In this document: positions 21,487 to 46,397 of the stretch, one piece after another
How the letters are laid out: every line of letters starts with the position of its first letter
Numbering within the stretch: position 1 is the stretch's first letter
DNA from: Candidatus Micrarchaeota archaeon
GTDB lineage: Archaea; Micrarchaeota; Micrarchaeia; Micrarchaeales; Micrarchaeaceae
Assembly (NCBI GenBank): GCA_027339055.1
Contig: DAHWRK010000001.1
Location: forward strand, 6,289 to 70,288
DNA length: 64,000 bases
Direction: 5' to 3'
The notes under the pieces: generated by a model
Told to the model about the DNA's origin: nothing
Database searches by the model: none
Seen by the model: the letters and a program-made list of their open reading frames with translations, nothing else
Position numbers and translations under genes: made by a program

Positions 21487-21526
21487 ATGCTATTCATTTA
21501 CGTTTGCACTGTTTTTAAATCTTAGC

Positions 21527-21785: not shown

Positions 21786-21895
21786 AAGGCTTATATTCAA
21801 TAATGAGTTATAAATAGGTTTGCGGAGATAAGAATGGGACAGAACGGAACAAGCTCAAAATAGCACATGCTAAATATTTTATTCTCTAGAATATT

Positions 21896-27976: not shown

Positions 27977-28702
27977 ATGGCTTCTTCGTTAAACAAACCA
28001 GAGCTTATAGTAAATGGCAAAAGGCTCGACGGAAGGGATTTTGACGAGCTAAGGCCCCTGAAGATAGAGGCCAATGTGCTTAAAAACGCACAGGGCTCGG
28101 CCTACCTAGAGTGGGGCAACAACAGGGTGCTTGCCGCAGTATACGGGCCAAAGGAGGCCATGCCTAGGCACACCGCAGACTCTACAAAAGCGGTAGTCAA
28201 ATGCAGGTACTCTATGGCGCCTTTTTCAGGCTTGGGAGAGCACGGAAGGACAGGGCCTAACAGGAGGGCTACCGAAATATCAAAGGTCACGAAGGAAGTG
28301 TTCGAAAACGTCATATTCCTTAACGAATTCCCAGGAAGCGAGATAGACATATTCATAGAGATACTGCAAAGCGACGGAGGAACCAGAGCAGCTGGAATAA
28401 CCGCAGCTGCTGTTGCGCTGGCCAACGCAGGCATAAAAATGAGAGACCTGGTCTATGCCGTCAGCGCTGGCAGGATAGGCGAACACGTGGTCCTGGATGT
28501 TGACATGATAGAAGACAATTATTCCGATGCAGACATGCCAATGGCAATATCTCCGAAAAGCAACGATGTGCTGCTGCTGCAAATGGACGGAGGCTTGGAC
28601 AAGGACCAGCTGAAGCAGGCCATGAATATGGTAGTAGAAGCGGGCAAGAGCATATCGAAGGCTCAGAGAGATGCCCTGAAGGCCATATACGAAAACAGGT
28701 GA
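27977..28702 (+). CDS. rrp41: exosome subunit Rrp41
   Basis: RLDGR..DELRP, GSAYLEWG, DGGTR and DMPMA motifs. Confidence 0.96.
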   Translation: MASSLNKPELIVNGKRLDGRDFDELRPLKIEANVLKNAQGSAYLEWGNNRVLAAVYGPKEAMPRHTADSTKAVVKCRYSMAPFSGLGEHGRTGPNRRATEISKVTKEVFENVIFLNEFPGSEIDIFIEILQSDGGTRAAGITAAAVALANAGIKMRDLVYAVSAGRIGEHVVLDVDMIEDNYSDADMPMAISPKSNDVLLLQMDGGLDKDQLKQAMNMVVEAGKSISKAQRDALKAIYENR

Positions 28703-28706
28703 TTTT

Positions 28707-29492
28707 ACGGGTGCAATAGAGATTATAAAAAGCGATTATATAAGGGAAATGATAGCCAAAGGCGAGCGAGAGGACAAGCGCGGCGCGATGGATTACAGGA
28801 ATATAGAGATAAAAACTGGTGTCATAGACCATGCCGAGGGTTCGGCACAGGTAGACATAGGAAACACAAGAGTGCTTGCCGGAGCCAAAATAGTGGTAGA
28901 CGAAGTGCATTCCGATACTCCGGACCAAGGCAACATAGTGGTTTCGGCAGAGCTTCTGCCGCTGGCTGCAGCAGAGTACGAAGCAGGGCCGCCAAGCCCT
29001 GAAGCAATAGAGCTCGCAAGGGTTGTCGACAGGGGCATAAGGGCAGGAAACTGCATAAAGCTCGAGGAGCTGTTTTTGGAAGAAGGCAAGGCATGGACGG
29101 TTTACGTTGACGTGTACGTCCTCAACTACGACGGCAACCTTTTCGACGCCAGTACGCTTGCTGCCATGGCTGCAATAGCAAATTCAAGGCTGCCGGCCTA
29201 CAAGGACGGAGTGGCGGATTACAAGGAGAGGAACACTCCGATAAATGTTAATAACATAGTGGCATCATGCACGTTCGCAAAGATAGGCAATGCGATAGTG
29301 CTGGATCCGAGCGGAGTTGAAGAATCGGCAATGGATGCAAGGCTCACGATTGCAACTGACGGAAAGACAGTAAGGGCAATGCAGAAGGGGCTTAAAGGAA
29401 GTTTTACGCTCAAGGAGATTGAAGAACTGGTAGATGCTGCGATCGAGAAGCACAAGGAGCTCGCAAAGCACATCGAAAAGGCAAAAAGATGA
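28707..29492 (+). CDS. rrp42: exosome subunit Rrp42 (probable ACG start at 28707; first ATG is at 28749)
   Basis: AEGSAQV, ELARVVDRGIR and YDGNLFDA motifs. The in-frame extension GAIEIIKSDYIREM follows GGTG-N5-ACG. Confidence 0.95.
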   Translation, partial: TGAIEIIKSDYIREMIAKGEREDKRGAMDYRNIEIKTGVIDHAEGSAQVDIGNTRVLAGAKIVVDEVHSDTPDQGNIVVSAELLPLAAAEYEAGPPSPEAIELARVVDRGIRAGNCIKLEELFLEEGKAWTVYVDVYVLNYDGNLFDASTLAAMAAIANSRLPAYKDGVADYKERNTPINVNNIVASCTFAKIGNAIVLDPSGVEESAMDARLTIATDGKTVRAMQKGLKGSFTLKEIEELVDAAIEKHKELAKHIEKAKR

Positions 29493-29496
29493 TTTT

Positions 29497-29745
29497 ATGG
29501 CAAGCCCTAATATAAGGTATGGAGCCAGGATAAGGAAGAGGCAGAAAGCGGTAAAGGCCGATAAGGTAGCACTCTACAAATGCGAAGAATGCGGCCACGT
29601 AGCCGTGAAGAGGATAAGCACCAGCATATGGAGATGCAGGCACTGCGGAGCGACTTATGCCGGAGGAGCATACACAATGACCACAGCCGCTGGCGAGGTC
29701 GCCAGAAGGCAGGTTGATTCCATAAGGAAGAGCAACAAGGGATAA
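29497..29745 (+). CDS. rpl37ae: 50S ribosomal protein L37Ae (eL43)
   Basis: RYGARIRK and CEECG..VKRISTSIWRCRHCG..YAGGAY motifs. Confidence 0.95.
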   Translation: MASPNIRYGARIRKRQKAVKADKVALYKCEECGHVAVKRISTSIWRCRHCGATYAGGAYTMTTAAGEVARRQVDSIRKSNKG

Positions 29746-29750
29746 TCGCA

Positions 29751-30131
29751 ATGGTAAAAATAAGCTTTTCGCCGGTAAACGAGCTCGTGGTTCACGAGGT
29801 TGTAAAGGTAGGCATGGACGACCTCATGAGGGAAAGGATAACCCCTGCAGGAACGATGCCCCTATACTGGTGCAATGGCTTTATTTTCAGCTTTTCGTCG
29901 GTCCCTATGAACAAGCGCGTCCTTGACGATTACCTTAACGGCAGGATACACTGGATGGAGGTGCACTACACAGAGATGAAGGACTATGACGAAGTGGTGG
30001 TGCTAAACGACGAGCATTACAACGGAAGCATGAAGATAAGGGTCATAGACACGAGCAAGTCTGCCCTTCACAGCGATTTCGTCAAATGGCTCAAGGCCAA
30101 CAGCAAGCCGGCCAGGGAAAGCAATAAATAA
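29751..30131 (+). CDS. hypothetical protein in the exosome superoperon
   Basis: 126-aa ORF between rpl37ae and rpoP on the same strand. Confidence 0.75.
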   Translation: MVKISFSPVNELVVHEVVKVGMDDLMRERITPAGTMPLYWCNGFIFSFSSVPMNKRVLDDYLNGRIHWMEVHYTEMKDYDEVVVLNDEHYNGSMKIRVIDTSKSALHSDFVKWLKANSKPARESNK

Positions 30132-30179
30132 TAATAAAGCCAACAGTATCGCAATGTTTACGTTCAAAGGTGTCAAAAA

Positions 30180-30311
30180 ATGAGCTATGTATGCATGAGC
30201 TGCAACAGGGAAATAGAGCAGATAGAGGGATTCGTAAGATGCCCCTACTGCGGAGGAAGAAGGCTTATAAAGAAAAGGCCCAGCATACCGAGAGAAGTCT
30301 CAACCGATTGA
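30180..30311 (+). CDS. rpoP: RNA polymerase subunit P (Rpo12)
   Basis: Hand-translated 43 aa: MSYVCMSCNREIEQIEGFVRCPYCGGRRLIKKRPSIPREVSTD. GGTG SD upstream. Confidence 0.93.
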   Translation: MSYVCMSCNREIEQIEGFVRCPYCGGRRLIKKRPSIPREVSTD

Positions 30312-30340
30312 AGGCTGGCTTTTTTATTTTAGGCCAAAGT

Positions 30341-30589
30341 TCAGCGCTTTGCCTCGGAAGCCCCCACTATGACTGTTTCTGATACGTTCTTTACCCTGTC
30401 ATAGCTTACGCTGTTTTTCTTCAGCAGCTGCGCGGTGTGGTCGCTTCTTATCAGGCTGTCTATCTTCACCGTAAGCATGCTTGCTATCTTGCCCTCCTCG
30501 AAATCTATTATCAGATCCTCGACGGTTCCGATCCTCTTGCCTTCGTTGCTTATTATCTGCTTTCCATACATGTCGGAGAGTAATACCAT
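30341..30589 (-). CDS. PRC-barrel domain protein
   Basis: LSDMYGKQIISNEGKRIGTVEDLIID pattern. Confidence 0.88.
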   Translation of the reverse strand: MVLLSDMYGKQIISNEGKRIGTVEDLIIDFEEGKIASMLTVKIDSLIRSDHTAQLLKKNSVSYDRVKNVSETVIVGASEAKR

Positions 30590-30598
30590 TTCAAAAAC

Positions 30599-31144
30599 CT
30601 ATTTTACGTTTAGTATGTGCTTGGAAGCGAATACTCTTATTATATAGGCTTTAAGCTCATTTATAAACTTTTGCTCGTCAGTCTCGAATTCCTTCATATC
30701 AATGCCGTCAAAAAGCTCCCTGTTTGAAACTACCAGCTTTTTCAGATACGCGTCAGTCAGGTAGTACGCTTTTGTGCCGCATGAGCCGCAGTCATACACC
30801 GGCATTATAGGTATTTTGGATGGCTTTTTCTCTGTCGAAGCGTGCCTTACTAGGGTATTGCGGTGGCATGACGGGCATTCTTTGTGAAGCGCTATTGGCT
30901 CGTAAACGCTCTCCTTCGGCTCTATCCCGTTTGAGTCCATGAAGGCCTCGACGAGCTCCTTCTGGTCGTGGCCTTTTATGTTTATGAGCCTCTGGTCGAG
31001 TATTCCGCCGTCCCTGTCGAATGTGGTCTGCAGGGCGTAGCTGTCGCCCTTGGGCTCCCACAGCACCTGAAGCTGTGCGCCATCCAGCTCGTATTCGAGC
31101 TTTATGGAGTGTTCCGGGCTTTCGGATAGGTTGCCTGATGCCAT
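30599..31144 (-). CDS. hypothetical zinc-ribbon protein
   Basis: CPSC...CGSC motif. Directly abuts the histone gene. Confidence 0.7.
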   Translation of the reverse strand: MASGNLSESPEHSIKLEYELDGAQLQVLWEPKGDSYALQTTFDRDGGILDQRLINIKGHDQKELVEAFMDSNGIEPKESVYEPIALHKECPSCHRNTLVRHASTEKKPSKIPIMPVYDCGSCGTKAYYLTDAYLKKLVVSNRELFDGIDMKEFETDEQKFINELKAYIIRVFASKHILNVK

Positions 31145-31354
31145 CTAATTACCGGGGTCAAGCGCGTACGCCTCCACGTCCTCGGCAGTAACCCTGCCGT
31201 TATTGCTCGATTTGGCGTGCTCCACAGCGTATTTTGCTATCTCCGAAGCCTTGTTATCCAGCATCTTGGCCATTGCAGCGGCAGCTTCGTCGTCTATTTT
31301 GATCCCGTATTTGCCCATGACAAGTTTTTTCACAGCAGCAATAGGTATGCCCAT
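31145..31354 (-). CDS. archaeal histone-fold protein (divergent)
   Basis: IPIAAVKKL...IDDEAAAAMAKML...IAKYAVEHAK...VTAEDV aligns by eye with HMf-type histones. Confidence 0.8.
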   Translation of the reverse strand: MGIPIAAVKKLVMGKYGIKIDDEAAAAMAKMLDNKASEIAKYAVEHAKSSNNGRVTAEDVEAYALDPGN

Positions 31355-31361
31355 TCAACCA

Positions 31362-31424
31362 CACAATCAGCACTCAAGATCCACATCACAGCAATCGCTC
31401 AGTGCGCTTTGTTCATCACAGCAG
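31362..31424 (-). ncRNA. C/D box guide sRNA, predicted guide for tRNA-Leu(CAA) Cm34
   Basis: Box C GTGATGA (31419-31413), D' CTGA (31402-31399), C' TGATGT (31388-31383), D CTGA (31370-31367). D guide GGATCTTGAGTG. TATA-like TTTTTATA at about 31450-31443. Confidence 0.8.
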
Positions 31425-31477
31425 ACTTATTGCAATTTAACATATAAAAATATGACGCCGTAGAGAGATAGCGGAAG

Positions 31478-31493
31478 TGCCGCATATGCGGCA
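31478..31493. repeat. perfect 16-bp palindrome in a divergent promoter region
   Basis: TGCCGCATATGCGGCA. Confidence 0.6.
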
Positions 31494-31583
31494 TGGCCGC
31501 ATTTTTATTTATTTTTATAATAGGAATGCTGCGATAGGCTTAAATAACATATAAAAAAGAATATATATGAAAAAGGTGATAGA

Positions 31584-31904
31584 GTGAGCGTTAAGGATGT
31601 AAACGAAAAGGAATTCGAAGAAGAAGTGCTTAAATCCGATATGCCAGTACTTGTTGACGTATGGGCAACATGGTGCGGCCCTTGCAGGATGTACTCTCCG
31701 ATAGTGGACGAAGTGTCGAACGACTACGAAGGAAAGATAAAATTTGTCAAGGTAGACGCTGACGAAAACGAGAATATAGCGGCAAAGTACGGCATAATGA
31801 GCATACCGACTACGCTGCTCATCGAGAAAGGCAAGGTAAAGGCCCAGAGCGTCGGAGCGGTTCCAAAAGAAGTGCTAAAGAAGTGGATAGAGAAGAACCT
31901 GTGA
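31584..31904 (+). CDS. trxA: thioredoxin
   Basis: WATWCGPC and IMSIPT motifs. Confidence 0.96.
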   Translation: MSVKDVNEKEFEEEVLKSDMPVLVDVWATWCGPCRMYSPIVDEVSNDYEGKIKFVKVDADENENIAAKYGIMSIPTTLLIEKGKVKAQSVGAVPKEVLKKWIEKNL

Positions 31905-31979
31905 TTGCAGGGCTTCTTTTTATTCTTTTTCTTCTGAATATCAGTGTCCAGCAGCGTAGCTGGCTTGCTAGTGTGTTTT

Positions 31980-33251
31980 ATGGGAGAAATACCATTCCCT
32001 AGGGGAGTAAGGGACCTTATGCCGAACGAGGCCATAGCCAGAAACGAAGTTATGGAAAAAATTGAGCGTGTATACAGGAGCTTCGGCTTCCTCCCGATAT
32101 ATACTCCTTACATGGAAAGCCTTGATGTGCTTAAGGCCAAGGAGGTCATAGGGGAAGAGAACAAGCTCATATTCGAGCTCAAGGACCAGAACAACGGGCT
32201 AAGATACGATCATACGGTAGGGCTTGCCAGGTACATAAGCATGCACAACAGCATGCCGCTGCCTTTCAAGAGGTATGCAATAGGCACAGTCTGGCGCATG
32301 GACGAGCCGCAGAAGATGAGGCTGAGGGAATTCGCTCAGGCCGACGTAGACATATTGGGAGGCGATGCCATAAAGGCCAACGCTGAAGCAATAGCTGCGG
32401 TATGCAAGGCAATGGACGAGCTCGGGCTTGATTACACCATAAGGCTCAACAGCAGGCAGACGGTTGACGTTTTCATGGAAAGGATAGGCCTGAAGGAACA
32501 GACGCAGAAGATAATGAGGATTATGGACAAAGCCGATAAAATAGGCAGGGAAGGAGTATCAAAGGAACTGTCTGCCATAGGCTTGAAGGACGATTCGATA
32601 GACCAGATAGGCGCGCTTGTTGGGGTTTCCGGGACCAATGAAGAAAGGATCAAAGCCATAAACGGCATGGCAGGAAGCGAAGATGCGTGCGCGGAGATAT
32701 CAGGCACGCTTGAGCTTTTGCAGAAATATGCAATAAAGGGCAAGTGCATAGTCGATCCTTCGATAGTAAGGGGAATAGATTACTACACCGGCATAGTTAT
32801 GGAAACAATCGACAACACAGGCTTTGCAGGCAGCACTTCCATATGCTCTGGAGGGAGATACGACAACCTTGTGTCAAGGTTCAGCGAAAGCAAATTGCCA
32901 GGAGTTGGATTCAGCATAGGAATAGACAGGGTGCTTGACGTTATGAAGTTCGGGGATAGCAAGAAACGCACATACGCCAAGGTATTTGTGGCTTACATAA
33001 AGGAGCAGAATTACGATTACGCGCTTGATGTCGCGATGAAGCTTAGAAGCGCAGGCGTTGAGGTTGACCTCAACCAGGCGAGCAGGAACATATCCAACCA
33101 GCTCTCATACGCTTCGTCCCTTGGCATGCCCTATTCCATAGTCGTAGGGCCGAAGGAGCAGGATACCGGCAAGGTAAAGCTCAGGAATATGGACACGGGC
33201 GATGAATCCGAGATGTCGGTTGACGAAGCCATAGCGAGCATTGCCAAGTGA
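31980..33251 (+). CDS. hisS: histidyl-tRNA synthetase
   Basis: PRGVRD, LRYDHT, REFAQADVD, RGIDYYTG and GGRYD motifs. Confidence 0.96.
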   Translation: MGEIPFPRGVRDLMPNEAIARNEVMEKIERVYRSFGFLPIYTPYMESLDVLKAKEVIGEENKLIFELKDQNNGLRYDHTVGLARYISMHNSMPLPFKRYAIGTVWRMDEPQKMRLREFAQADVDILGGDAIKANAEAIAAVCKAMDELGLDYTIRLNSRQTVDVFMERIGLKEQTQKIMRIMDKADKIGREGVSKELSAIGLKDDSIDQIGALVGVSGTNEERIKAINGMAGSEDACAEISGTLELLQKYAIKGKCIVDPSIVRGIDYYTGIVMETIDNTGFAGSTSICSGGRYDNLVSRFSESKLPGVGFSIGIDRVLDVMKFGDSKKRTYAKVFVAYIKEQNYDYALDVAMKLRSAGVEVDLNQASRNISNQLSYASSLGMPYSIVVGPKEQDTGKVKLRNMDTGDESEMSVDEAIASIAK

Positions 33252-33296
33252 TTTATAAATTTTTAGGATAAAATAGGTTATTCGAAGGTAATTGAC

Positions 33297-33806
33297 ATGG
33301 GAAAATCAGAGGTTGAAAAGCTTACCGACGAGAAGATAGCGAAAGGCGGCGTTCTCGTGAAACTTTATTTTGACATGCAGCACAAGGAGAAGGAGAAACT
33401 TCAGCCGCTGATGGCAGACCTGATAAACGAAAGGCTGATGAAGGAGAAGGGCGTTGTCTACTGCTACGGCAGCATAGAGGAACCGTTAAAGAGGGACGAC
33501 CTGTACACTACCAGCGCGATGGTGACCGTTCTGTTCGAAAGCTTCTTCCCGCTAATAGGCGTGGCCTTCAATTATGCGCCTGCAGGCGTAGAGGTATTGA
33601 GGCCTGAGAAAGAGATGAGGTTTACAACCGCAGAGCTGCAGAGCCTGATACTTGAGCTCTCGCAGATATCCGTAACGTACTCTAAATACATACTGGAGCG
33701 CGTAATGAAGCCAGAGGAGATAGACTCGCTTAGCAAAAGCATGGATACGCGCGCCGAAGTCGGCAAAAAGTTTCTGGGCAAAAAGGACGACGAGCAGGCA
33801 GCTTGA
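33297..33806 (+). CDS. hypothetical protein
   Basis: 169-aa ORF with an SD (AGGT) and an upstream TATA-like element. Confidence 0.75.
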   Translation: MGKSEVEKLTDEKIAKGGVLVKLYFDMQHKEKEKLQPLMADLINERLMKEKGVVYCYGSIEEPLKRDDLYTTSAMVTVLFESFFPLIGVAFNYAPAGVEVLRPEKEMRFTTAELQSLILELSQISVTYSKYILERVMKPEEIDSLSKSMDTRAEVGKKFLGKKDDEQAA

Positions 33807-33811
33807 GCGTA

Positions 33812-34903
33812 TTACTTTGCATCGGCAAGGCGGTACTGCCTTGCCAGGTCGGCCGAAAGCCTGGAAAGGGCTTTGGTCGATTCGTTATTGTTCATTTCAG
33901 AGGCCCTTACTATTTCTGACATCTTTGCTATAACGTCGTCGTATTCCCTGAGGTTTATTGGATAGGGTATCCCATCCTTTCCGCCTACGTTATAGGAATA
34001 CATTACAGGGTCCCTGTACGATACCTCTTTGTCGTATATCAGCGAGGATATGAGCGCGAGCGATTTTAGGGTTTTTCTTCCTAGGCCCTTTATTGAAAGG
34101 AGCTCTTCATAGCTCTCCGGCTGCATCTCATTTGCGTATTTCAGAGTATCTCGCGCACGCTTGGACATATCCACATTTTCGAGTATTTCGTGGCGTGAAG
34201 GGAGCCGGTAAACCTTCGAGTTAAAATTGAGTATGGCATTTATGTCCTCGTTGACTGCGGCAACGCTGTCATTTTTTATGCCTGTGTTGTCGTTAAAGGT
34301 AAGGTCAAGAGTCTGGGAGCTGCTTGATGCGCCTACGGCGCTGTTGGTTTCCTTGGTCATGTCGGAATAGTCTATTTTTCTGGAATCTATCTGGAACCGT
34401 ATTGCATTGTCTGTCGAGTTCTGCATTGCCTGCTGGACTACGCACCAGTCGCCCTTATCCGAGAACACGAATGTATGGTGGTATATCCCTATGTCATCGT
34501 ATACGAGCGCGGAATCTATCTTTGCCGACATCCTGCTCATGCGCACGTATTCTTCGGCTTTGGACTCCATTGAAAAGTATTTGAGGCCCTGCATTATCTG
34601 CTCCGGCGTGGATGTCCCCTGCTTGCCCTTGCCTCCTGCTATGAAAATCCCTGAGTTGTTGTTTAGCGCCTCCTTTAGCGCACCCATCGTGACCGTTGTT
34701 GTGCCGCTGCTGTGCCAGTCGTAGCCTATGGCGCAGGAAAGCGCCTGGAACCAGTACGGGTTCGAGAGCCGCGACACAAACTCCGATTCGCCGTACTCGC
34801 GTATTACGACCTCGCTTACGAGCTTTGATAGCTTGACCATCCTAGGGAACAGCCATCTTGGGGCCCTCCCACCATGGAGAGGCAGCACGCTTACGCTTTG
34901 CAT
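33812..34903 (-). CDS. DUF763 family protein
   Basis: LPLHGGRAPRWLFPRM, GYDWHSSGTTT and GGKDGIPYP motifs. Confidence 0.9.
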   Translation of the reverse strand: MQSVSVLPLHGGRAPRWLFPRMVKLSKLVSEVVIREYGESEFVSRLSNPYWFQALSCAIGYDWHSSGTTTVTMGALKEALNNNSGIFIAGGKGKQGTSTPEQIMQGLKYFSMESKAEEYVRMSRMSAKIDSALVYDDIGIYHHTFVFSDKGDWCVVQQAMQNSTDNAIRFQIDSRKIDYSDMTKETNSAVGASSSSQTLDLTFNDNTGIKNDSVAAVNEDINAILNFNSKVYRLPSRHEILENVDMSKRARDTLKYANEMQPESYEELLSIKGLGRKTLKSLALISSLIYDKEVSYRDPVMYSYNVGGKDGIPYPINLREYDDVIAKMSEIVRASEMNNNESTKALSRLSADLARQYRLADAK

Positions 34904-34947
34904 GATTAGAATTCCGCTTGCAGCTATTTAAAAAGATTGTTTGGCGG

Positions 34948-36003
34948 TTACGAAGAAACTGTCGTCAGGTTTATCAATATGCCTGGAGTCTGCGATGGCA
35001 GGGGCGACATATGAAAGCCCGTGACTGCGATATAGCTGTGATGCTTGAGGCTTTGTGCCACTACCCTTACCTGGACGGCATCTCCGGAAAGAGATATTAA
35101 CGGTATGCTGGCATTCCTGAACGTATAGGGCGCAGTGGTTCCAAATTTAGATATGTTGAACGTATTGTAATGCGCTATCTCGGCAGGGAGCCCGTCATGG
35201 AGTATTTCAACGTAGATATTGGCATCTTCCGGGCTTATTACCTTGAAGTTAAGGAACGGCTCTGATACAATGAAGGGGCTCGAGGTCAGATTGCCCGGAG
35301 CGTTGCTAAGCCCGCAGTTGAATGTTGTGGCGAAATAGCTGCCGTTGTAACCAGCCCATGGCGCGCCAAGATAGCAGCCTTCGCTGTCAGCCTTTGCTAT
35401 GCTTGTCGGCGCGGTGCCGAAGCCAGTATTGGCCAGATACCAGCCGTTGTATTCTCCAGTGCTGAAATTGCCGTTGTACACTTCGGGATATGTGACATTT
35501 GAAGGTGCGGTTGTCGTTGTGTTAAGCTTTATGAATGCATACTTGTTGCTGCATGTTCCCCCCGGCTGCCCTGTCTTCAGAGTTACTTTGTAATACGCTG
35601 CCGGAAGCGTTATATTCTGCAGGAACGTGGAGCACGAATACGAAGATGTACCGTTAAGATAGGTTATGTTGTTTATTCCCCTTATTGAATAGCTTATGCT
35701 TTTGGAACTCCCTGACGCAACCCATATTCCTATTGGGCCGCCAGACCAAATGCAGTAATTTATGTCTATGGAATTGCTAGTGGAATTGAACATACCGAGA
35801 TCGGCGCAGTTGCTTAGGTAGTACACAGTAGTGGTCGTGTTAGTTTTGTTTGACGTGACATTTGAAGTTGTGTTTGGCTTTATTGTGCTTGAAAGAGTTG
35901 ACGTGCTCGTTATTCTTGCAGGAAACTTGAAACCGATGGTGAAATACCAAAGCGCTATTATAATGAGTATTATTGCTATGTAAGCGATTATGCCTTTGTG
36001 CGT
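34948..36003 (-). CDS. membrane-anchored surface protein (probable ACG start at 36003)
   Basis: (M)HKG-IIAYIAIILIIIALWYF signal/TM segment, Thr-rich linker, many sequons. The ORF-track N-terminal extension overlaps rpl41e on the opposite strand. Confidence 0.75.
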   Translation of the reverse strand, partial: THKGIIAYIAIILIIIALWYFTIGFKFPARITSTSTLSSTIKPNTTSNVTSNKTNTTTTVYYLSNCADLGMFNSTSNSIDINYCIWSGGPIGIWVASGSSKSISYSIRGINNITYLNGTSSYSCSTFLQNITLPAAYYKVTLKTGQPGGTCSNKYAFIKLNTTTTAPSNVTYPEVYNGNFSTGEYNGWYLANTGFGTAPTSIAKADSEGCYLGAPWAGYNGSYFATTFNCGLSNAPGNLTSSPFIVSEPFLNFKVISPEDANIYVEILHDGLPAEIAHYNTFNISKFGTTAPYTFRNASIPLISLSGDAVQVRVVAQSLKHHSYIAVTGFHMSPLPSQTPGILINLTTVSS

Positions 36004-36121
36004 TGCAACACCGTATGGATTATTAGGACAGTATATATGAATACAGAACTTATTTAAATGATGATGGATAAATACTATACGCCGATGCAGCTTAGTAGCG
36101 GCAACGTTCAAAGGTGTTATT

Positions 36122-36235
36122 TTGGGAAGCATCCCTAGGAAATGGAAGAAGAAAGGGCGAATGCGCTGGAAATGGAAGAAGAAAAGGCGCAAGCGCTTGA
36201 AGAGAGCACAGAAACGCAGAGTAGGAGAGCTTTGA
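36122..36235 (+). CDS. rpl41e: ribosomal protein L41e (eL41/eS32)
   Basis: Hand-translated MGSIPRKWKKKGRMRWKWKKKRRKRLKRAQKRRVGEL. SD GGTG-N5-TTG. Confidence 0.9.
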   Translation: MGSIPRKWKKKGRMRWKWKKKRRKRLKRAQKRRVGEL

Positions 36236-36315
36236 GCTCTCCGTTCTTGCGGAAAGTCTTTTCCTTTGTGCCGGATAAAATCCGGCAAGCTTTATTTTTA
36301 CCTTTACTGTAAACT

Positions 36316-37770: not shown

Positions 37771-37880
37771 TGTTACCTCCGCTATCGAGTTTCGTTGTTG
37801 CTGTGGTCGAATTTCTGGTGTGGCGCTTTAGTTGTAAGCTATCCCTAAGCCAGTTCCCAGAGAAGCACCAGCATTTTAGG

Positions 37881-39056: not shown

Positions 39057-39072
39057 TTCACCTTACCTGTTT

Positions 39073-39585
39073 TCACTTATTTCCTGATTTCCTTGGCTTC
39101 CTTATTGCGCATGAGGGTTTTGAAAGCTTGCTTGAATAGTATCCAAGTATTACAAGGTTTAGTGCGAGCGCAGCAAGCATCAGCGGGGTCTCGTAATTTG
39201 CTATAGTTGTGTCGAGGCTTATTATCGAGCCAGAGCTCAGCCCTATTACGGCAAGATACGAAAGCGCGGAGAAGCTGCAACCGCAGCTTACCGCGAAACT
39301 GCCAGCCAGGGCCACTGCGCTCCCGGAGACCGGTGCAGATAACTTGGCCCTGTTGTTTTTCGTATTGAAGGCAGAGTATATGGCCAATGTAACGAGAACC
39401 GATGAGGTTATTGCTATCAGATAGAACAGGTATTCTGAAGCATTGTTGTTGAAAAGTATTATCTTGTTGTCGATAAGGACTATGCCCCTCATCACGAAGT
39501 AGTATATGAAAAAGGCTGCGATGTTCAGCGCAATGTATTTTGGCTTTCTTATGTAAAGCGCCCTAAACGTTTCGTAAACACCCAT
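39073..39585 (-). CDS. multi-pass membrane protein with a CxC motif
   Basis: About 4 TM segments, SCGC and C-terminal KPSC. Resembles the 1682-2200 protein. Confidence 0.7.
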   Translation of the reverse strand: MGVYETFRALYIRKPKYIALNIAAFFIYYFVMRGIVLIDNKIILFNNNASEYLFYLIAITSSVLVTLAIYSAFNTKNNRAKLSAPVSGSAVALAGSFAVSCGCSFSALSYLAVIGLSSGSIISLDTTIANYETPLMLAALALNLVILGYYSSKLSKPSCAIRKPRKSGNK

Positions 39586-40602
39586 TCAAACACCCATGGC
39601 AGACTCAAGATCCTTTATTCCCTGCAACTGGCAAACTGGCGGAGTATTATTAAGCGAGGGGCACAGGTAGGCCACGTAAACATCTGCAGCCGCGTACTCG
39701 CCCCAGGCGAACTGATCGTTGAAATTCTTGAGCTGTGACAATACCTGTGCGTGCGTTTCGTTTGTCAGTGGAAGGGTTGACGTATTAGGGGTTGTATTTC
39801 CGAAAACTATCCCGGTAGCCCCTGGAACAAGAACTTTTCCCCAGAAGGTAAACGGCGTACCTTGGAAATCGTTAGTAGAGTTCATGAATGACATTGCCGA
39901 CTTGTACGTGGCATTCGGTGCTTGGCTTACAAAATAGGATAGAGGCTGTACCTCAAATCCGTCCACTATTGGGGATTCATAGTCTGCCGATATGAAGTTT
40001 ACATATTTGCTGCTGTAATAGTTGCCAAAGCCAACTCCCTCTGGAATTGTGTAGTTGTTGTTGTTCCAGTATATAGTAGGAACGTCATGGTCGCCGAAGC
40101 TGCTGTAGCCTTCATACAGCTTCGAAAAATTGCCAAAGCGAGACAGGGCAAGAGCCATCGCCCACCTGTTCTCTCCGCAGAATACGCAGGATATTGCGCC
40201 TATGTATATCACGCTGGGCTTTCCGTTTACCACGAAAGTATGGTTTGACTTCAAAGTAGGGGGCGTGTCTATTATCTCGTCGGTTAACGAACCGTTGAGA
40301 AGCTTCAGGGCTGCAGTGTTGAAATATGAATTAGAGGCATTGTTTATTATCGACAAGTATTGAGGGCTGAATGGAACGTCTATGTTGGTAAGCCTTGAGC
40401 CGAAATGCTTGTTTGGTGGCTTGAGCGGATTTACCATTGCGAATGCAAGTATTATTACAACTAACAAGAGCACTATCGTACTCCACTTATAGCGATTCTT
40501 CTGTTTTGAAAGTTCTGCTATGGACTGTTTGGTGCGATGCGCCTTAGATTTAGACATCCCAGCAAGTCTTCGGAACCTCATTGCCAAAACCGTATCAATC
40601 AT
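39586..40602 (-). CDS. DUF929-like exported thioredoxin-fold protein
   Basis: TM anchor and GKPSVIYIGAISCVFCGENRWAMALALSRFG. Start may be the ATG at 40557. Confidence 0.8.
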   Translation of the reverse strand: MIDTVLAMRFRRLAGMSKSKAHRTKQSIAELSKQKNRYKWSTIVLLLVVIILAFAMVNPLKPPNKHFGSRLTNIDVPFSPQYLSIINNASNSYFNTAALKLLNGSLTDEIIDTPPTLKSNHTFVVNGKPSVIYIGAISCVFCGENRWAMALALSRFGNFSKLYEGYSSFGDHDVPTIYWNNNNYTIPEGVGFGNYYSSKYVNFISADYESPIVDGFEVQPLSYFVSQAPNATYKSAMSFMNSTNDFQGTPFTFWGKVLVPGATGIVFGNTTPNTSTLPLTNETHAQVLSQLKNFNDQFAWGEYAAADVYVAYLCPSLNNTPPVCQLQGIKDLESAMGV

Positions 40603-40660
40603 ATTTAAAATAAAGAATATATAATCTTTTGTATTATGTTTTTACCTTGAGGGAATTTTT

Positions 40661-41461
40661 ATGGCATCGGCACAGCTTAGCGCTAAAAACGAGGAAGTCA
40701 AGCACAAACAGAAGCTAGAGTTCATAGATGCGCACTGTCATCCTGACTTTCTTTGCGACGAGGAACTTGATATTGCAAATGGAAGAGGAGTAACGGCGTT
40801 TGTAGTCAACGGCGTAGACACCAAGTCAAACATGTCGATAATGGGAGAAAGATGGCGCTCGGGAGTGTTCGCGGCTTTGGGCGTCCACCCTGAGAATGCC
40901 CTGAAGATGGCGGATAACGAAATCGATTACAACGTAAACCTGATAAGGGCAAATGCAAAGAGCGTATCCGCAATAGGAGAAATAGGCCTTGATTATAAAT
41001 TTGCAAACAACGAAAAAGATAGGGAAAGGCAAAAAGAAGTCTTCAAAAAGTTCGTGAATCTTGCGATAGAGCTTGACAAGCCCGCCAGCGTCCATTCTAG
41101 GGACGCGTTGGACGACGTCTTGGATATTCTCGGCGCATCAGCGATAAAGAAGGCCCATATCCACTTTTTTGAAGGGAATGCAGAGCAAGCTGAAAGGGTG
41201 GCAAAAATGGGATTTATGGTCTCCGTGCCGCCAATGCACTCAGCAAAAAGAATGGCAGCCATTGAGCCGATACCTATATCAAACATAATGGCAGAGACTG
41301 ATTCTCCAACAGCAGGCATGCACGTATATGACATTGACAAGTCGGTAATGCTGATTGCCAAAGCCAAGGGCATGGATTTCGAAAGCTGCGCCGTTAAGAT
41401 AGCAGACAATACAAAAAGATTCTTTAATATTGGCGTTCACAATCTAATTCGACGGATTTAA
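40661..41461 (+). CDS. TatD family DNase
   Basis: IDAHCH, GVHP, IGEIGLD, VHSR and ETDSP motifs. Confidence 0.93.
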   Translation: MASAQLSAKNEEVKHKQKLEFIDAHCHPDFLCDEELDIANGRGVTAFVVNGVDTKSNMSIMGERWRSGVFAALGVHPENALKMADNEIDYNVNLIRANAKSVSAIGEIGLDYKFANNEKDRERQKEVFKKFVNLAIELDKPASVHSRDALDDVLDILGASAIKKAHIHFFEGNAEQAERVAKMGFMVSVPPMHSAKRMAAIEPIPISNIMAETDSPTAGMHVYDIDKSVMLIAKAKGMDFESCAVKIADNTKRFFNIGVHNLIRRI

Positions 41462-41568
41462 GGGCCCGTAGCTCAGCTTGGACAGAGCAGCAGCCTTCTA
41501 AGCTGATGGTCGCGGGTTCAAAATAAGTTTAGCTGTTCGCTAAGGCTATGGAATTCCCGCCGGGCCCG
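41462..41568 (+). tRNA. tRNA-Arg(UCU) with a 32-nt T-loop intron (41523-41554)
   Basis: Acceptor stem GGGCCCG/CGGGCCC and anticodon loop CTTCTAA. BHB-guided removal restores the T-loop TTCAAAT. Confidence 0.92.
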
Positions 41569-41986
41569 AATCCGCGCTTTCTTTTTGGCTTCTCCCCCCT
41601 CTCTTGTCCTGCTTGCCCTGCTTCGCGTTCGCGAATTCTATGGAGAGATCCTCTTCCGAAGGCGTTTCCATCCATGCCTTTATGTAGGACGCTATGTTTC
41701 TGAAAGGCTTCGAATACCGGTCCGTAAGCTCGTATATCGAATTTTCGTGCTTAAGCAGCCCAAGCTGAACGGCATAATCAAGGTATCTCTTTGCCGTGGC
41801 AATAGGTATGCCATCGGGAACGTCCTTGAGCCGCAGCCCGCCCTTCTTTGCCATGCTTAAAAGTACGGCGAACCTGTACGCCTCGGTTTCGTTTTCGAAG
41901 AATATCCTTGCAATGTCCGCAACCTTTGGGTTCTTGACCTTCTCCCTGAAAGGCGCATCTTCGAATTCCCAGTATTTTATCGCCAT
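41546..41986 (-). CDS. winged-helix-like hypothetical protein overlapping tRNA-Arg on the opposite strand
   Basis: IPIATAKRYLDYAVQLGLLKHENSIYELT. SD GGAGGT precedes the ATG at 41986. Confidence 0.75.
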   Translation of the reverse strand: MAIKYWEFEDAPFREKVKNPKVADIARIFFENETEAYRFAVLLSMAKKGGLRLKDVPDGIPIATAKRYLDYAVQLGLLKHENSIYELTDRYSKPFRNIASYIKAWMETPSEEDLSIEFANAKQGKQDKRGGRSQKESADSGPAGIP

Positions 41987-42048
41987 TTTTACCTCCGCAG
42001 ACATATCTGATTATAAGCATATATTTTTATCCATGGGAGAGCTTGAGC

Positions 42049-43152
42049 TTATCTTTCCTTTATGAACGTGACTGTGTCCCTGTCGCGCAGTACGTGCTTT
42101 ACCCCTACGCGCTGGTTCCTGAATTTCACGCTGGGGCCATCGACGAATGCGCATTTTAGCTCGTCCACTATTGAGGTATGTATTTTTCCGGCCAGCTCAC
42201 CTACGGTTGCATTCTTGCTTATTATGATCGGTTCAGAATCTCCCCCTATTTTTGGCTTTAGGAATATCCTCATTATGCCAAGATTCTCGTATATACCTGC
42301 CTTCAATTCGTTTATTCCGTGGCCGGTGGTTGCGCTTATTGGAAAAACCTGCATTGGGTAGCGCTTCGAAACATCCGATTGTATGTTTTTGTTTTGCCCA
42401 AGCAGATCCACTTTGTTTAGGGCTATTATCCCTCTCATGTAATATGCCTTTTCCGATATTATTGCTATAAGGTCGTCCTCGTTTACCTTGTCCCATATCT
42501 TGACTATTGCCTTGAATATGCCAAATGCATTGAGTATTGCTTTTATGTCGTCTTCAAGAAGCCCGGATTTGTTTACTTCCAGCATTATACCGTTGGCATC
42601 GTTCTTCTTTATTATCGAGATGCGCGGCTTTTGTTCGTTTATGTGTATATTGAGGCCCTTAAGTTCCGCCATGAGTGCGTCAAGCTGCCAAGCGTTGGTA
42701 GCATCAATCACAAAGACCACCAGTTCCGAAACGCGCATTTGCGCTATGACCGCCTTCCCGCCGCCCTTTCCTAGGTGTGCGTCTTCTATTATGCCAGGCA
42801 TGTCAAGAACCTGTATGTGCGCGCCGTTGTATATCATGGTCCCAGGTATTATGGTAGTCGTTGTAAATGCGTATGCCGCAGTCTTTGACCTCGAATTTGT
42901 AAGCACGTTCAGTAGTGAGGACTTTCCGGCGCTTGGAAATCCGAGCAGCGATATGGTGGAGTCTCCGGTCTTTTTTATGAAAAATCCCTTGCCGTGCTGC
43001 CGTTTTCCGGCTTCCACAAGTTCTCGGCGTGCTTCTGCTACCTTTGAACGCAGCTTTGCAAGATGCTTGTTGGTGGCCTTGTTGTCCTTTGTCTTCGAAA
43101 GTTCTTCTTCAAGTTCTTCGAGCCTTTGGTTTACGGCCTCCTTTTTGTCCAT
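42049..43152 (-). CDS. DRG/OBG-family GTPase with a TGS domain
   Basis: KATNKH, GFPSAGKS, YAFTT, DMPG and NKVD motifs, C-terminal TGS. Confidence 0.93.
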   Translation of the reverse strand: MDKKEAVNQRLEELEEELSKTKDNKATNKHLAKLRSKVAEARRELVEAGKRQHGKGFFIKKTGDSTISLLGFPSAGKSSLLNVLTNSRSKTAAYAFTTTTIIPGTMIYNGAHIQVLDMPGIIEDAHLGKGGGKAVIAQMRVSELVVFVIDATNAWQLDALMAELKGLNIHINEQKPRISIIKKNDANGIMLEVNKSGLLEDDIKAILNAFGIFKAIVKIWDKVNEDDLIAIISEKAYYMRGIIALNKVDLLGQNKNIQSDVSKRYPMQVFPISATTGHGINELKAGIYENLGIMRIFLKPKIGGDSEPIIISKNATVGELAGKIHTSIVDELKCAFVDGPSVKFRNQRVGVKHVLRDRDTVTFIKER

Positions 43153-43291
43153 TATTACACTTATAAAATTAATTTACTTTAATAAATTAATATATATGAA
43201 GATAAAATTTAATTTATTTTATAGTTTATTTTATTCAGTATATTTTTTATAGATTACTTTTGTAGTATGCATAAGTTTAAAAGTGAGATAA

Positions 43292-43384
43292 ATGGCAAAG
43301 GCAGCAAAAAAGAAGACTTCAAAGAAAAGCACAAAGAAGTCTAAACCAAAGTCAAAGTCAAAGTCTTCGAAGAAAAAGAGATAA
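43292..43384 (+). CDS. 30-aa Lys/Ser-rich basic peptide
   Basis: MAKAAKKKTSKKSTKKSKPKSKSKSSKKKR. GTGA SD, AT-rich promoter region upstream and T-rich terminator downstream. Confidence 0.65.
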   Translation: MAKAAKKKTSKKSTKKSKPKSKSKSSKKKR

Positions 43385-43433
43385 GGTTGTTACCCGTTGC
43401 TCTTTTTCTTTTTTTCTTTTTTTATGATTTTTA

Positions 43434-44732
43434 TCAGCCCGAAAATTTCGACATAAATCTTTTCATGTTCCTATCGTTTTTCAGCATGTTGAACGACTTC
43501 TTCATCTTTGCGAAGTCTGAAAGCAGCTCCCTTACCTCCTTTTCCGATGTTCCGCTTCCGAGCGCTATCCTCCTTATGCGGCCATCCTGATGCAATATGT
43601 GCTCGTCGAGGCGCTCCGCCTTGGTCATTGAGGATATTATTACCTTATATTTTACGAGCTTTTCCTCGCCCTTTTCTATGACGTCCTTTGGCATGTCGGA
43701 TGCGCCAAGCATTCCGAAAACGCTTTTGAGCGGGCCCATCCTATTCAACGCCTTGAGCTGCGCGTAGAAGCTTTCGAAATTTAGCTTTTGGACTTCTACT
43801 TCTTCGGGATTTATGTTTTCCGCAGTTATGGCGTTCTGGACTTTTTCGAGGAGATTTGCTATGTCAGGCATGCCAAGCAATGAGCCTATGAACCTTTCAG
43901 AGTTGTATGGCTCTATTTCTGACAGTTTTTCCCCGATGCCTATGAACATGACTTTGGCGTCGGCAGCATTGGCGGCGCTGAGTGCTCCGCCGCCCTTTCC
44001 TGAGCCGTCCATCTTGGTTATTATCAGGCCCGTTATGCCGACCGCATCGCCGAATTCGCTGGCGAGGCGACCGGCCACCTGACCTATATCTGCGCTGAGC
44101 ACCAGTATGGTGTCATCGGGCTTGAATTCTTTGTTTATCTCTTTTAGCTCGTCTATCAATTCCTCGTTTATCGAGTTCCTGCCGCTTGTGTCGCAGATGA
44201 TCACCTGCTTGCCCTTGAGAGCCTCAAGGCCCTGCTTGACTATTTTGGCGGCATTGCTCTCGCCTTTTATCCCGAAAAATGCCACGTTGGCCTGGGAAGC
44301 GAGAGTTTCTAGCTGCTCATAGGCAGACGGCCTAGTCACGTCGCAGCAGATTAGGCCAGCGCTTAAGCCCCTGTCCTGGTAGTATTTTGCCAGCTTGGCT
44401 GCCGTGGTGGTCTTTCCGGAGCCGTACAGGCCCATCAGGAGTATCCTGCGCGGCTTCATTTCAGGCTCATAGCTCTTGCCCATGAATGAGACAAGCTCGT
44501 TGTAGACTATGTCGGTTATATAATCGTGTGGGGTGATTCCGGGAGGCGGATTCGACTTGAGGGCCTTTTGCTCTATGCTGCTCGTGAGTTTCAGCACTAG
44601 CGAAACGTCTACGTCGCTGCTTATAAGTGTCTTTTGCAGCTCCTTGTCGAATTCCTTTATTGTTTTTGCATCTATTATGGTGGCTCGCGACAGTCTTGCC
44701 ATTGCCTTCCTGATGCCTTCTCCCAGATCCAT
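43434..44732 (-). CDS. srp54: signal recognition particle protein SRP54
   Basis: GLYGSGKTT, DTSGR, TKMDGSGKGGGALS and M-domain RIRRIALGSG motifs. Confidence 0.96.
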   Translation of the reverse strand: MDLGEGIRKAMARLSRATIIDAKTIKEFDKELQKTLISSDVDVSLVLKLTSSIEQKALKSNPPPGITPHDYITDIVYNELVSFMGKSYEPEMKPRRILLMGLYGSGKTTTAAKLAKYYQDRGLSAGLICCDVTRPSAYEQLETLASQANVAFFGIKGESNAAKIVKQGLEALKGKQVIICDTSGRNSINEELIDELKEINKEFKPDDTILVLSADIGQVAGRLASEFGDAVGITGLIITKMDGSGKGGGALSAANAADAKVMFIGIGEKLSEIEPYNSERFIGSLLGMPDIANLLEKVQNAITAENINPEEVEVQKLNFESFYAQLKALNRMGPLKSVFGMLGASDMPKDVIEKGEEKLVKYKVIISSMTKAERLDEHILHQDGRIRRIALGSGTSEKEVRELLSDFAKMKKSFNMLKNDRNMKRFMSKFSG

Positions 44733-44843
44733 AAAAACAGCCCTTCAGCTTCCTTGCTCTTTGGTTTTTACATTTATTAATTTATCCGTATTGCTGCGCA
44801 CGTTATTTAATTGATAACTGGAATTTATTATATAGTGATTGGA

Positions 44844-45974
44844 TTGAAGGTGCTCATCGCTCAGGCCAACCTCACCCTCAAGGGAGGCGCCGAAAAGGTA
44901 GTCCTGAAGATAGCCCAGCATTACCGCGCCAGGATAATAACGGCAGAATATGATCCAGAAGGCACATTCCCGGAATATCAAAAGCTGGACGTTGATGTAA
45001 TAGGTGGAAATTCCACGGGTTTTCCGGCTTATGGGAGAGTTTTTCAGGGATTGAAATACGGCCTCGGATTTTATAGCATGAGCGTGGACGAGGATTATGA
45101 TGTTATAAATGCGCATATAGCCCCGAGCCATTGGATAAGGAACAGGAACGAGCGCGTGCTTTGGTATTGCCATACCCCGCTGCGGGACGCGTATGATATG
45201 TACAGGTTCAGGATGTCGATGAAAAAGTTTTACCAGAAACCAGTGCATTATCTTGGCATAAAAGTGGTAAGGCGCATGGACAGGAAAGTGGTAAATAAAA
45301 TAGAACGCATAGTTGCCAACAGCCAGAATACCAAGGGCAGAATAGAAAAATACCTGGGAAGAAGCGATGCCAGGGTACTGGGCGGGGGAATAGACCATCA
45401 AAAGTACAGGAACAGGGGCGACGAACATTATTTTTTATACCCGTCAAGGATATCGCCCAACAAAAACCAGGAATTTGCCATAAGGGCATTTGAAGAATTC
45501 AGCAAAAAGAAAAAGGGATATAAGCTCATATTGATGGGTGCAGTATCGAAAGATGCATTTTACCAAGATTATTATAGGCGCATAGAGGGAATGGCTAAGG
45601 GCAGGAAGGACATCTCCATAATGGCAAATGTAGGCGAGGATGAGTTTAGGGATGCCTATTCGAGGGCGACCGCAGTGCTGTATCCGCCGATAAACGAAGA
45701 TTACGGGCTTGTGCCGCTTGAGGCCATGGCAAGCTCTAAGCCGGTCATAGCGCTCAACCAAGGCGGCCCTAGAGAGACAGTTATTGACGGCAAGACGGGC
45801 TATTTAGTCAGCGACGAGCATTCTATGTGCAACGCAATGCTGAAGATATCCGAGGAACCGGATATTGCCTCGATGATTGGAGAAAATGGGAGAAAACATG
45901 TGATCAAAAACTATTCCTGGAGGCGTTTCTTCACTGAATTCGACAAGGAGCTTAAATTAGCCTCCAAGTCATGA
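44844..45974 (+). CDS. GT4 family glycosyltransferase
   Basis: GGAEKV, WYCHTP and EDYGLVPLEAMAS motifs. Confidence 0.92.
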   Translation: MKVLIAQANLTLKGGAEKVVLKIAQHYRARIITAEYDPEGTFPEYQKLDVDVIGGNSTGFPAYGRVFQGLKYGLGFYSMSVDEDYDVINAHIAPSHWIRNRNERVLWYCHTPLRDAYDMYRFRMSMKKFYQKPVHYLGIKVVRRMDRKVVNKIERIVANSQNTKGRIEKYLGRSDARVLGGGIDHQKYRNRGDEHYFLYPSRISPNKNQEFAIRAFEEFSKKKKGYKLILMGAVSKDAFYQDYYRRIEGMAKGRKDISIMANVGEDEFRDAYSRATAVLYPPINEDYGLVPLEAMASSKPVIALNQGGPRETVIDGKTGYLVSDEHSMCNAMLKISEEPDIASMIGENGRKHVIKNYSWRRFFTEFDKELKLASKS

Positions 45975-45983
45975 AGCGAGGAT

Positions 45984-46334
45984 TTACTTTTCCGGCGGAT
46001 TAAGCGAAATCACGTATTTGGACATTACCTTTGCAACGTATTCCAGTATGCTCTTTACTTCCGGCTCTGTCCTCGCGCCGGTGCATATCATCTTGCCATT
46101 CTTGAATAGTATGACCGTCCTGGATTCGGATATCTTGAATATCGCCCCGGGAAACTGCTCAGGTTCATAGTCAACTGCCTTTACCTCCTTCGAAAGAGCG
46201 TATAGGTCTACGACAGCATGCAGGTCTGCACTGACAACTATGTTGTAAATAGATATTTTAGGAGATTCTAGGCTGCCGGTTTGGGCTCCAGCAGGCTTTG
46301 CATCGCTTTTTTTTGTGCTTTTCTTGTTTGGCGT
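45984..46334 (-). CDS. single-repeat TATA-binding-protein domain protein (probable ACG start)
   Basis: Hand-translated ...IYNIVVSADLHAVVDLYALSKEVKAVDYEPEQFPGAIFKISESRTVILFKNGKMICTGARTEPEV... 116 aa from ACG 46334 to TAA 45984. Confidence 0.85.
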   Translation of the reverse strand, partial: TPNKKSTKKSDAKPAGAQTGSLESPKISIYNIVVSADLHAVVDLYALSKEVKAVDYEPEQFPGAIFKISESRTVILFKNGKMICTGARTEPEVKSILEYVAKVMSKYVISLNPPEK

Positions 46335-46397
46335 TGAACCACCGCAGTTAATAATAAGTTTAAATAGAAAGCTATAAATACCGCAGAGGCGTTTCGC

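Follow-up and report, generated by a model that had tools for sequence, protein, structure and literature searches.

The genes considered here carry ACG, or another near-cognate triplet, at the position where translation should begin. Several of them lie in a 64,000-nucleotide (nt) stretch of contig DAHWRK010000001.1 (positions 6,289 to 70,288), part of the Candidatus Micrarchaeota assembly GCA_027339055.1; this whole stretch is the window, and positions are counted from its first letter. Named homologues likewise point to Micrarchaeota. The window's genome, G000, is 54% complete in 38 contigs. Its 16S rRNA ends in AUCACCUC, which is complementary to GGUG and so identifies GGUG as the Shine-Dalgarno (SD) core. 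The spacer between this core and the confirmed ATG starts of G000 is most often 5 nt (35 genes), and otherwise 6 (11), 7 (5), or 8 (3).

The original prediction placed ACG in this slot at three unrelated genes, and all three sites are as described. The first is rrp42, which encodes an exosome subunit of 261 codons (28707..29492, + strand). It begins within GGTG-ATTTT-ACG (28698-28709), and its SD core (28698..28701), itself complementary to AUCACCUC, overlaps the TGA stop of rrp41 (28700-28702). The second encodes a membrane-anchored or secreted protein with an amino-terminal hydrophobic segment, 351 codons from the ACG (34948..36003, − strand; SD core 36009..36012; GGTG-TTGCA-ACG, with the ACG at 36003). 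The third encodes a single-repeat TBP of class A, here TBP-A, 116 codons from the ACG (45984..46334, − strand; SD core 46340..46343, kept in family loci; GGTG-GTTCA-ACG, with the ACG at 46334). Profile matches, from hidden Markov models (HMMs) and Pfam, uphold the rrp42 and TBP labels, the latter with a single copy of PF00352; the protein at 36003 matches no NCBIfam or Pfam family. Six canonical starts cited for comparison also stand at GGTG+5: ATG at 2212 and 25889, TTG at 23926, 36122, and 63649, and GTG at 31584 (the HMM check of their gene labels covers psmA).

The near-cognate codons are likely to be inherited, unedited weak starts, and they fall into two classes: one labile between close species, the other fixed throughout the family. 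That initiation occurs at the ACG, ATA, CTG, and ATC codons themselves is, judged from sequence, very probable.

Near-cognate codons at gene starts

Genes were called in G000 and in parts of four other genomes (G003, 320 kb; G006, 877 kb; G016, 952 kb; G050, 580 kb), orthologues were paired, and codons at GGTG+5 were counted near the homology-defined amino terminus. The 480 G000 genes with orthologues show ATG 51 times in this slot, TTG 13, GTG 4, and ACG 6. The expected number for ACG is 0.30 (Poisson p 7.5e-7; one of the six was later rejected). The other threonine codons were found 0 times against 0.95 expected, and ACG at the control offsets (+2, +8, and +11) once against 2.76. With the window genes removed, ACG remains at 4 against 0.26 in 409 genes, or 3 after rejection of C22:17632, which has ACT in G003 and an upstream ATG. 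Pooled counts from four genomes (2194 genes; these are kin genomes, not independent samples) are 9 against 0.56 for ACG, 18 against 4.9 for ATA, and, at +6, 5 against 0.89 for CTG. No enrichment was seen in the anchored test for ACA, ACC, or ACT; for CCG, GCG, or TCG; for AAG or AGG; or at control offsets. A raw GGTG+5 count, taken without gene context, contains no ACG excess (25/2337); the enrichment emerges in the gene-anchored counts, the kind proposed in the original prediction.

For G000 the rows comprised 23 forced and 15 favoured starts; for G006 they are those among the matches listed. Many of the forced rows were dropped because they lacked an SD core and were alignment overhangs with a canonical start slightly downstream. 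Inspection of 20 candidates by hand left 12 strong, 6 moderate, 1 undecided (C35:3948, ATT), and 1 rejected. The strong candidates are rrp42, TBP-A, and the 36003 gene; pyrH, with ACG right after a TGA; rnhB, C8:3594, and C22:60059, with ATA; C33:11570, with ATC after a TAA; C34:40652, C22:13017, and C22:1779, with ACG; and C5:8588, with CTG. The moderate candidates, each with a canonical codon 1-5 codons away, are rpl29, aIF2-beta, C11:85528, C11:101922, C6:6233, and C33:29987. The labels rnhB, pyrB-type, rpl29, aIF2-beta, and aIF2-gamma are confirmed by Pfam; pyrH, pheT, nmd3, and "thioredoxin-fold" are labels that we presume from our own reading of the sequences. About 12-18 of the roughly 500 G000 genes likely use ACG, ATA, CTG, or ATC starts.

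ACG is a regular, inherited codon of the start position, as originally proposed, but it is not special: ATA, CTG, and ATC occupy the same slot. The original prediction missed this wider class, which includes the start of rpl29, directly 5' of aIF1.

A family-wide ACG on TBP-A

In the window, none of the 41 open codons upstream of the TBP-A ACG is ATG, GTG, or TTG, and the first such codon downstream lies 81 codons in, leaving 35 amino acids. The original claim that this gene has no usable ATG, GTG, or TTG holds.

The codon is kept throughout the family. Among 22 family genomes, 19 have GGTG-N5/6-ACG, 1 has ATA, and 2 have ATG; the amino-terminal tails differ in length and sequence. In 42 metagenome contigs of the family clade the counts are ACG 31 (30 under a looser rule, L268 being the difference), ATC 3, ATA 2, and canonical 6. 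Near-cognate starts thus make up 20/22 genomes and 36/42 contigs. Outside the clade, the sister family (same order) uses ATG or TTG, with an ATG available at all 8 of its TBP loci, and none of 39 rows has an SD-linked ACG. The clade itself has SH-aLRT (Shimodaira-Hasegawa-like approximate likelihood ratio test) support of 97 in an IQ-TREE run that was quick, unfinished, and based on 85 columns; it omitted 2 genome loci and 7 contigs that lacked an anchor or 5' sequence. In 4/22 genomes and 15/42 contigs the near-cognate codon directly follows an in-frame stop, so that any upstream start is excluded at those loci.

In 11 relatives, 5-15 of 14-19 four-fold sites of the TBP core have diverged from G000 (2/13 were not extracted), so that retention of ACG does not reflect recent common descent. 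A near-cognate codon kept family-wide despite saturated synonymous sites points to selection against AUG. We judge that start weakness in the fixed class is probably selected. The suggestion in the original prediction that a weak start serves to lower expression fits this pattern.

A likely TATA box, TATTTATAG, lies at 46371..46380 (− strand), with a similar element in relatives. Its position implies a short leader that would hold the SD core and little else. RNA contigs from three studies end 4-9 nt upstream of the ACG, while a flat-depth run continues past, a weak hint of such a leader; confirmed ATG genes yielded a TATA-position profile too sparse to place the transcription start.

Most family genomes contain two separate single-repeat TBP genes (e.g. 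G003:C1:786685-786939). The second half has an SD-linked ATG in G003, G006, and G016, as against ACG in half A. Half A could be the limiting TBP subunit.

Labile start columns of rrp42 and the 36003 gene

The other two window genes behave differently, and here the comparison of orthologous start codons that had been proposed was informative: relatives have ATG in the ACG column. Across nine congeneric genomes the rrp42 start column reads ACG in G000, G001, G003, and G005, and ATG in G002, G004, G006, G007, and G008. In 21 loci from other genera and the sister family, ATG occupies the same column in 19 and the next codon in 1, and TTG is found in 1. The 36003 gene has ACG in G003 as well, and in G006 an ATG at the corresponding position. 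C34:40652 has ACG in G000, G001, and G005, GTG in G004, and ATG in G002, G003, and G006; such interchange indicates that start-codon swaps are frequent and recent.

For neither window gene is ACG the only conceivable start. An rrp42 ATG lies 14 codons downstream, and its use would lose 11 HMM-matched residues. A start at the ACG of the 36003 gene is not forced, since in-frame TTG or ATG codons lie 36, 43, 63, and 95 codons upstream. Translation of rrp42 could be helped by reinitiation after the rrp41 stop.

Might the ACG codons be assembly errors, or mark decaying pseudogenes? The G000 assembly is incomplete and fragmented. Yet the same ACG is inherited in independent assemblies of other species, the frames are intact, the proteins are 95-99% identical to those of congeners, and the genes are transcribed. 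Errors, which the original prediction judged unlikely, and pseudogene decay can be practically dismissed.

RNA contigs and editing

The original prediction raised, more speculatively, C-to-U editing of ACG to AUG, which is a single C-to-U step away. Four RNA-labelled runs fall on a G003 stretch holding all three genes, and four runs on the TBP start; in that stretch G003 shares 32% of 31-mers with the window, about the same as the RNA runs. The letters at the three ACG codons are unchanged in all covering RNA contigs of the congener: X16, X18, and X19 span the rrp42 ACG; X15, X17, and X18 that of TBP-A; and X16 and X19 that of the 36003 gene, where the contigs begin 3 and 13 nt upstream. (X19 is without the TBP ACG, and X18 without that of the 36003 gene.) In X20 the depth is flat over genes and gaps alike; this run resembles DNA and was not counted as RNA. 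The patchy cover of the other contigs suggests real RNA.

These contigs report majority letters from a congener, with minority variants dropped, and so could hide partial editing; cover of the TBP and 36003 codons, moreover, lies 3-13 nt from a contig end. The deaminase domain PF00383, the one deaminase family searched, has matches in G016 and G024 among six genomes, and none in G000 (54% complete), G003, G006 (92-95%), or G050, though G000, G003, and G006 all have ACG. Finally, 1 genome and 5 contigs have ATA or ATC in place of the TBP-A ACG, and neither codon can be converted to AUG by a C-to-U change. Editing of ACG starts is therefore unlikely; as a general explanation for these codons it is very improbable indeed.

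A probable AUA start upstream of aIF1

The second family-fixed case is rpl29, encoding uL29. All 26 family genomes compared have ATA (23) or ATT (3) in the start column behind an invariant GGTG, and never ATG. The same column is ATG in 9/9 sister-family genomes, and an ATG lies within three codons in one genome of family f2 and in 14/14 genomes of other families.

The gene downstream encodes aIF1. The rpl29 stop overlaps the aIF1 ATG or lies within 2 nt of it in the 24 family genomes with a junction read; the sister family is alike, and the overlap is ancestral. The aIF1 start itself is ATG in every junction read, so that the weak codon does not lie in the reading frame of the fidelity factor itself, as it does in infC. 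In the 3/3 family genomes with long loci, rpl29-aIF1 is preceded by an unrelated gene or by AT-rich, TATA-like DNA rather than by rps3, which is kept upstream in 2/2 sister-family loci. (The pair is thus detached from the rps3 ribosomal operon; a kae1-like gene, by our own sequence reading, then follows, as in G000:C2:1495-1995 and in L079, L085, L097, and L191.)

Two aIF2 subunits also lean toward weak starts. In the window, aIF2-beta (PF01873; 21901..22327, + strand) reads GGTG-ATTGAA-ATA, with ATA at 21911, a probable AUA start, of moderate confidence, that the original prediction missed. The column is ATA in 7/7 congeners; in 14 other genera it is TTG (9), CTG (1), or ATG (4). For aIF2-gamma, G006 has CTG after a stop, G016 has TTG, and G050 has ATG. 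An archaeal signal recognition particle RNA (21525-21787, − strand) lies directly upstream of aIF2-beta and divergent from it.

Another explanation is that translation begins at a canonical codon nearby (a downstream ATG, the GTG of the SD core itself, or a leaderless upstream ATG) and that the near-cognate codon is ordinary Thr, Ile, or Leu, or is untranslated. Several facts speak for it and count against near-cognate initiation. The rpl29 spacer is 6 nt in 24/26 genomes, which places the SD core's GTG in frame at −3, and this column is the ATG column in 11/14 distant genomes; databases and gene callers annotate the GTG (P0002). In G000, aIF2-beta has an in-frame GTG at −3 and an ATG at −5 codons, the latter close to the likely transcription start; the thioredoxin-fold gene has ATG at +2; rrp42 and the 36003 gene have the canonical codons noted above; database annotations adopt such canonical starts; and in all, a canonical codon lies 1-5 codons away in 6/18 G000 candidates. 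Against this explanation, a nearby start is impossible for TBP-A in the window and at the 19 loci where its codon directly follows a stop; for pyrH, C33:11570, and rnhB; and for rpl29 in G023 and G050, the only two genomes in which the GTG is excluded, being out of frame with no canonical codon to replace it. It leaves the enrichment of ACG over ACA, ACC, and ACT unexplained. Moreover, no canonical start is rarer genome-wide than GTG, yet it is invariant at rpl29 and never turns to ATG, while the two codons between GTG and ATA vary freely. A start at this GTG would be without an SD. Nearby canonical starts are thus an improbable general explanation, and AUA is likely the start codon of rpl29.

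The initiation machinery

Relaxed fidelity of aIF1 or aIF2 had been offered as the cause of ACG initiation, and finds no backing. The factor aIF1 is present in 60/61 genomes. Aligned with solved archaeal aIF1, its zinc knuckle and basic loop show conservative changes, partly common to the sister family. Loop 1 reads K-F-N-K versus R-F/Y-G-K in the solved structures, and is similar in the sister family. Alignments of aIF2, a comparison made without the sister family, reveal no obvious loss. The initiator tRNA is ordinary, with A1-U72 and three G-C pairs.

The 16S rRNA does differ beside the P site. In G000, residues 1404-1406 (UAC) pair with 1495-1497 (GUA), and residue 966 is C (Escherichia coli numbering, in part after the table in PMC7005279); these positions are modified in Pyrococcus (PMC7005279). 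The top of helix 44 (G000:C11:4664-4790) carries three compensatory changes that turn the usual U-U pair 1406-1495 into C-G. U1406 is absent from 36/36 family genomes with a match, U1404 is present in 15, and U1400 in 9; C966 occurs in 13/32 family genomes and 0/95 others. (G074, flagged as unpublished, is inside the helix-44 denominators and left out of the 966 count; no conclusion depends on it. The G000 16S gene is about 2 kb long, with an internal coding insert.) No Nep1/EMG1 was found in 5/5 genomes tested, a state common to the sister family.

There is a rival account: a permissive P site, a small genome drifting into weak starts, fixed cases that are merely low-need products, and no feedback through aIF1. 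This pure tolerance is a serious competitor, somewhat short of an even chance. Most cases are indeed labile between close species, the 16S rRNA is altered beside the P site, Nep1/EMG1 was not found, and the rpl29-aIF1 overlap is ancestral. Against it, a weak start that is merely tolerated would be odd on the gene of an abundant ribosomal protein such as uL29; rpl29 keeps its near-cognate codon in 26/26 genomes, swapping ATA for ATT and never ATG; aIF2-beta (17/21) and aIF2-gamma (CTG, TTG, and ATG in three genomes) lean to weak starts; and the helix-44 and Nep1 states are common to the sister family, which has ATG at both TBP and rpl29. The 16S changes were rejected as the cause, since helix 44 is not family-specific (7/12 sister-family genomes with a match have the same form), residues 966 and 1400 are not family-wide, and neither tracks the TBP ACG. 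In some genera these changes may contribute to the tolerance.

A model for two classes of weak start

How might inherited, unedited weak starts be read? The GGUG SD core is predicted to fix the near-cognate codon in the ribosomal P site, where normal Met-tRNAi would pair with one mismatch; output should be low and sensitive to aIF1. This sensitivity is extrapolated from PMC6237735, in which aIF1 destabilises non-AUG initiation complexes, and from PMC4611024, on IF3. For rrp42 and pyrH, reinitiation after the adjacent stop may help (compare PMC6728339); TBP-A, with its own likely promoter, would initiate de novo.

In the labile class (rrp42, the 36003 gene, the thioredoxin-fold gene, pyrH, rnhB, pyrB, pheT, and nmd3) the codon shifts between ATG or GTG and ACG, ATA, or CTG among close species. 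These starts are probably tolerated, a near-neutral tuning with slightly lower output. In the fixed class (TBP-A with ACG, rpl29 with ATA or ATT), selection would keep the start weak, presumably for low output that depends on start-codon stringency.

For rpl29 this suggests a feedback loop resembling that of infC. The rpl29 stop overlaps or abuts the aIF1 ATG, so aIF1 synthesis could follow AUA initiation at rpl29: when aIF1 falls, AUA initiation would rise, and with it aIF1 synthesis by termination-reinitiation. Overlapping gene pairs were strictly coupled in 13/14 tests in Haloferax and E. coli (PMC6728339). The loop is a tentative proposal, with odds a little below even. More doubtful still is a family-wide stringency circuit, in which aIF1 limits its own synthesis through the rpl29 AUA and the same stringency sets TBP-A (ACG) and the aIF2 subunits (AUA, CUG, or UUG); such a circuit would link the capacity for basal transcription with translation fidelity.

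Further points weigh against the proposed weak starts, beyond those given for the RNA contigs and the nearby codons. No lesion in aIF1 or the initiator tRNA explains tolerance of near-cognate codons, and neither the shared helix-44 form nor the scattered C966 supplies one. TBP-A has canonical starts in 2/22 genomes and 6/42 contigs, so the weak start is not essential. For other genes the family contrast is weak (about 5/58 vs 0/48 SD-linked starts; Fisher p 0.06), and the screen covered Micrarchaeota genomes alone.

Relation to known systems

IF3 binds the small subunit and rejects non-canonical starts, and its gene, infC, has a near-cognate start (PMC4705826, PMC4611024). As in infC AUU autoregulation, a conserved near-cognate start (AUA or AUU) stands upstream of the coding sequence of a fidelity factor. 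Unlike in infC, the weak codon belongs to the gene upstream, rpl29, and its effect on aIF1 would come through predicted stop-start coupling; aIF1 is not an IF3 homologue; and the second fixed target, TBP-A, uses ACG. A closer relative of aIF1 is eIF1 (SUI1), whose autoregulation through an AUG in poor context has the same stringency-feedback logic (PMC4705826). There the signal is a scanning context effect, in contrast to an SD-positioned non-AUG codon on a coupled gene. In other respects the Micrarchaeota starts resemble canonical archaeal ones: the SD lies 5-7 nt away, and the anti-SD, initiator tRNA, and set of factors are normal.

Plant organelles edit ACG to AUG at start codons by C-to-U conversion. 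The likeness to the present cases ends with the genomic ACG: here RNA contigs keep ACG, ATA and ATC alternate with it, and no PF00383 deaminase was found in ACG-bearing congeners.

Archaeal starts are usually taken to be AUG, GUG, and UUG (the only ones that PMC7531240 lists), and ACG is not a start codon in NCBI table 11. Near-cognate hints exist elsewhere: unvalidated Ribo-seq peaks in Haloferax (PMC7261190) and CTG at 5% among new small open reading frames in Methanosarcina (PMC11456600). These do not concern conserved core genes, whereas the Micrarchaeota cases do. A 1991 paper reportedly described an archaeal gene whose translation in E. coli began at AUA. Searches that left most subscription journals outside found no literature on non-canonical start codons of Micrarchaeota or on feedback between rpl29 and aIF1, and look-ups returned no genome-wide near-cognate count or RNA test for this lineage.

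If correct, the circuit would give Archaea a first counterpart of infC and eIF1 autoregulation; the ACG of TBP would be, as far as these searches found, the first ACG start to span a whole family in a prokaryotic core gene. Conserved natural ACG and AUA starts on core genes are ready substrates for reconstituted archaeal initiation systems, in which start-codon proofreading by aIF1, and feedback control like that of IF3 or eIF1, could be studied. There is also a practical consequence. In these genomes the genes for TBP, uL29, RNase HII, UMP kinase, and others are given wrong starts or cut short by gene callers, and so some apparent DPANN gene losses may be annotation artefacts.

Other features of the window and its relatives

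Two more GGTG-N5-ACG sites in the window, at 30871 (+) and 55010 (−), were set aside as background; they open only 23 and 12 codons. GGTG-GTATT-ATA at 10746 (−), common to G003, opens a 305-codon reading frame with a signal-like amino terminus, a possible AUA start; with no usable orthologue amino terminus, it is left undecided. Beyond the screened genomes, loci L026, L029, and L044 add more cases from the family, with no canonical codon nearby: ATA in rrp4-like genes and ATC in a geranylgeranyl-reductase-like gene. Isoleucine is encoded mostly by ATA (60-85 per 1000 codons), and a tRNA-Ile with a UAU anticodon is present (G000:C22:20493-20569; also G003, G016, and G050). Finally, a weak tRNA-like Rfam match (59 nt, 33 bits) lies at 41462-41520 (+) in the window; ARAGORN does not call it, and it is possibly a split or intron-bearing tRNA.

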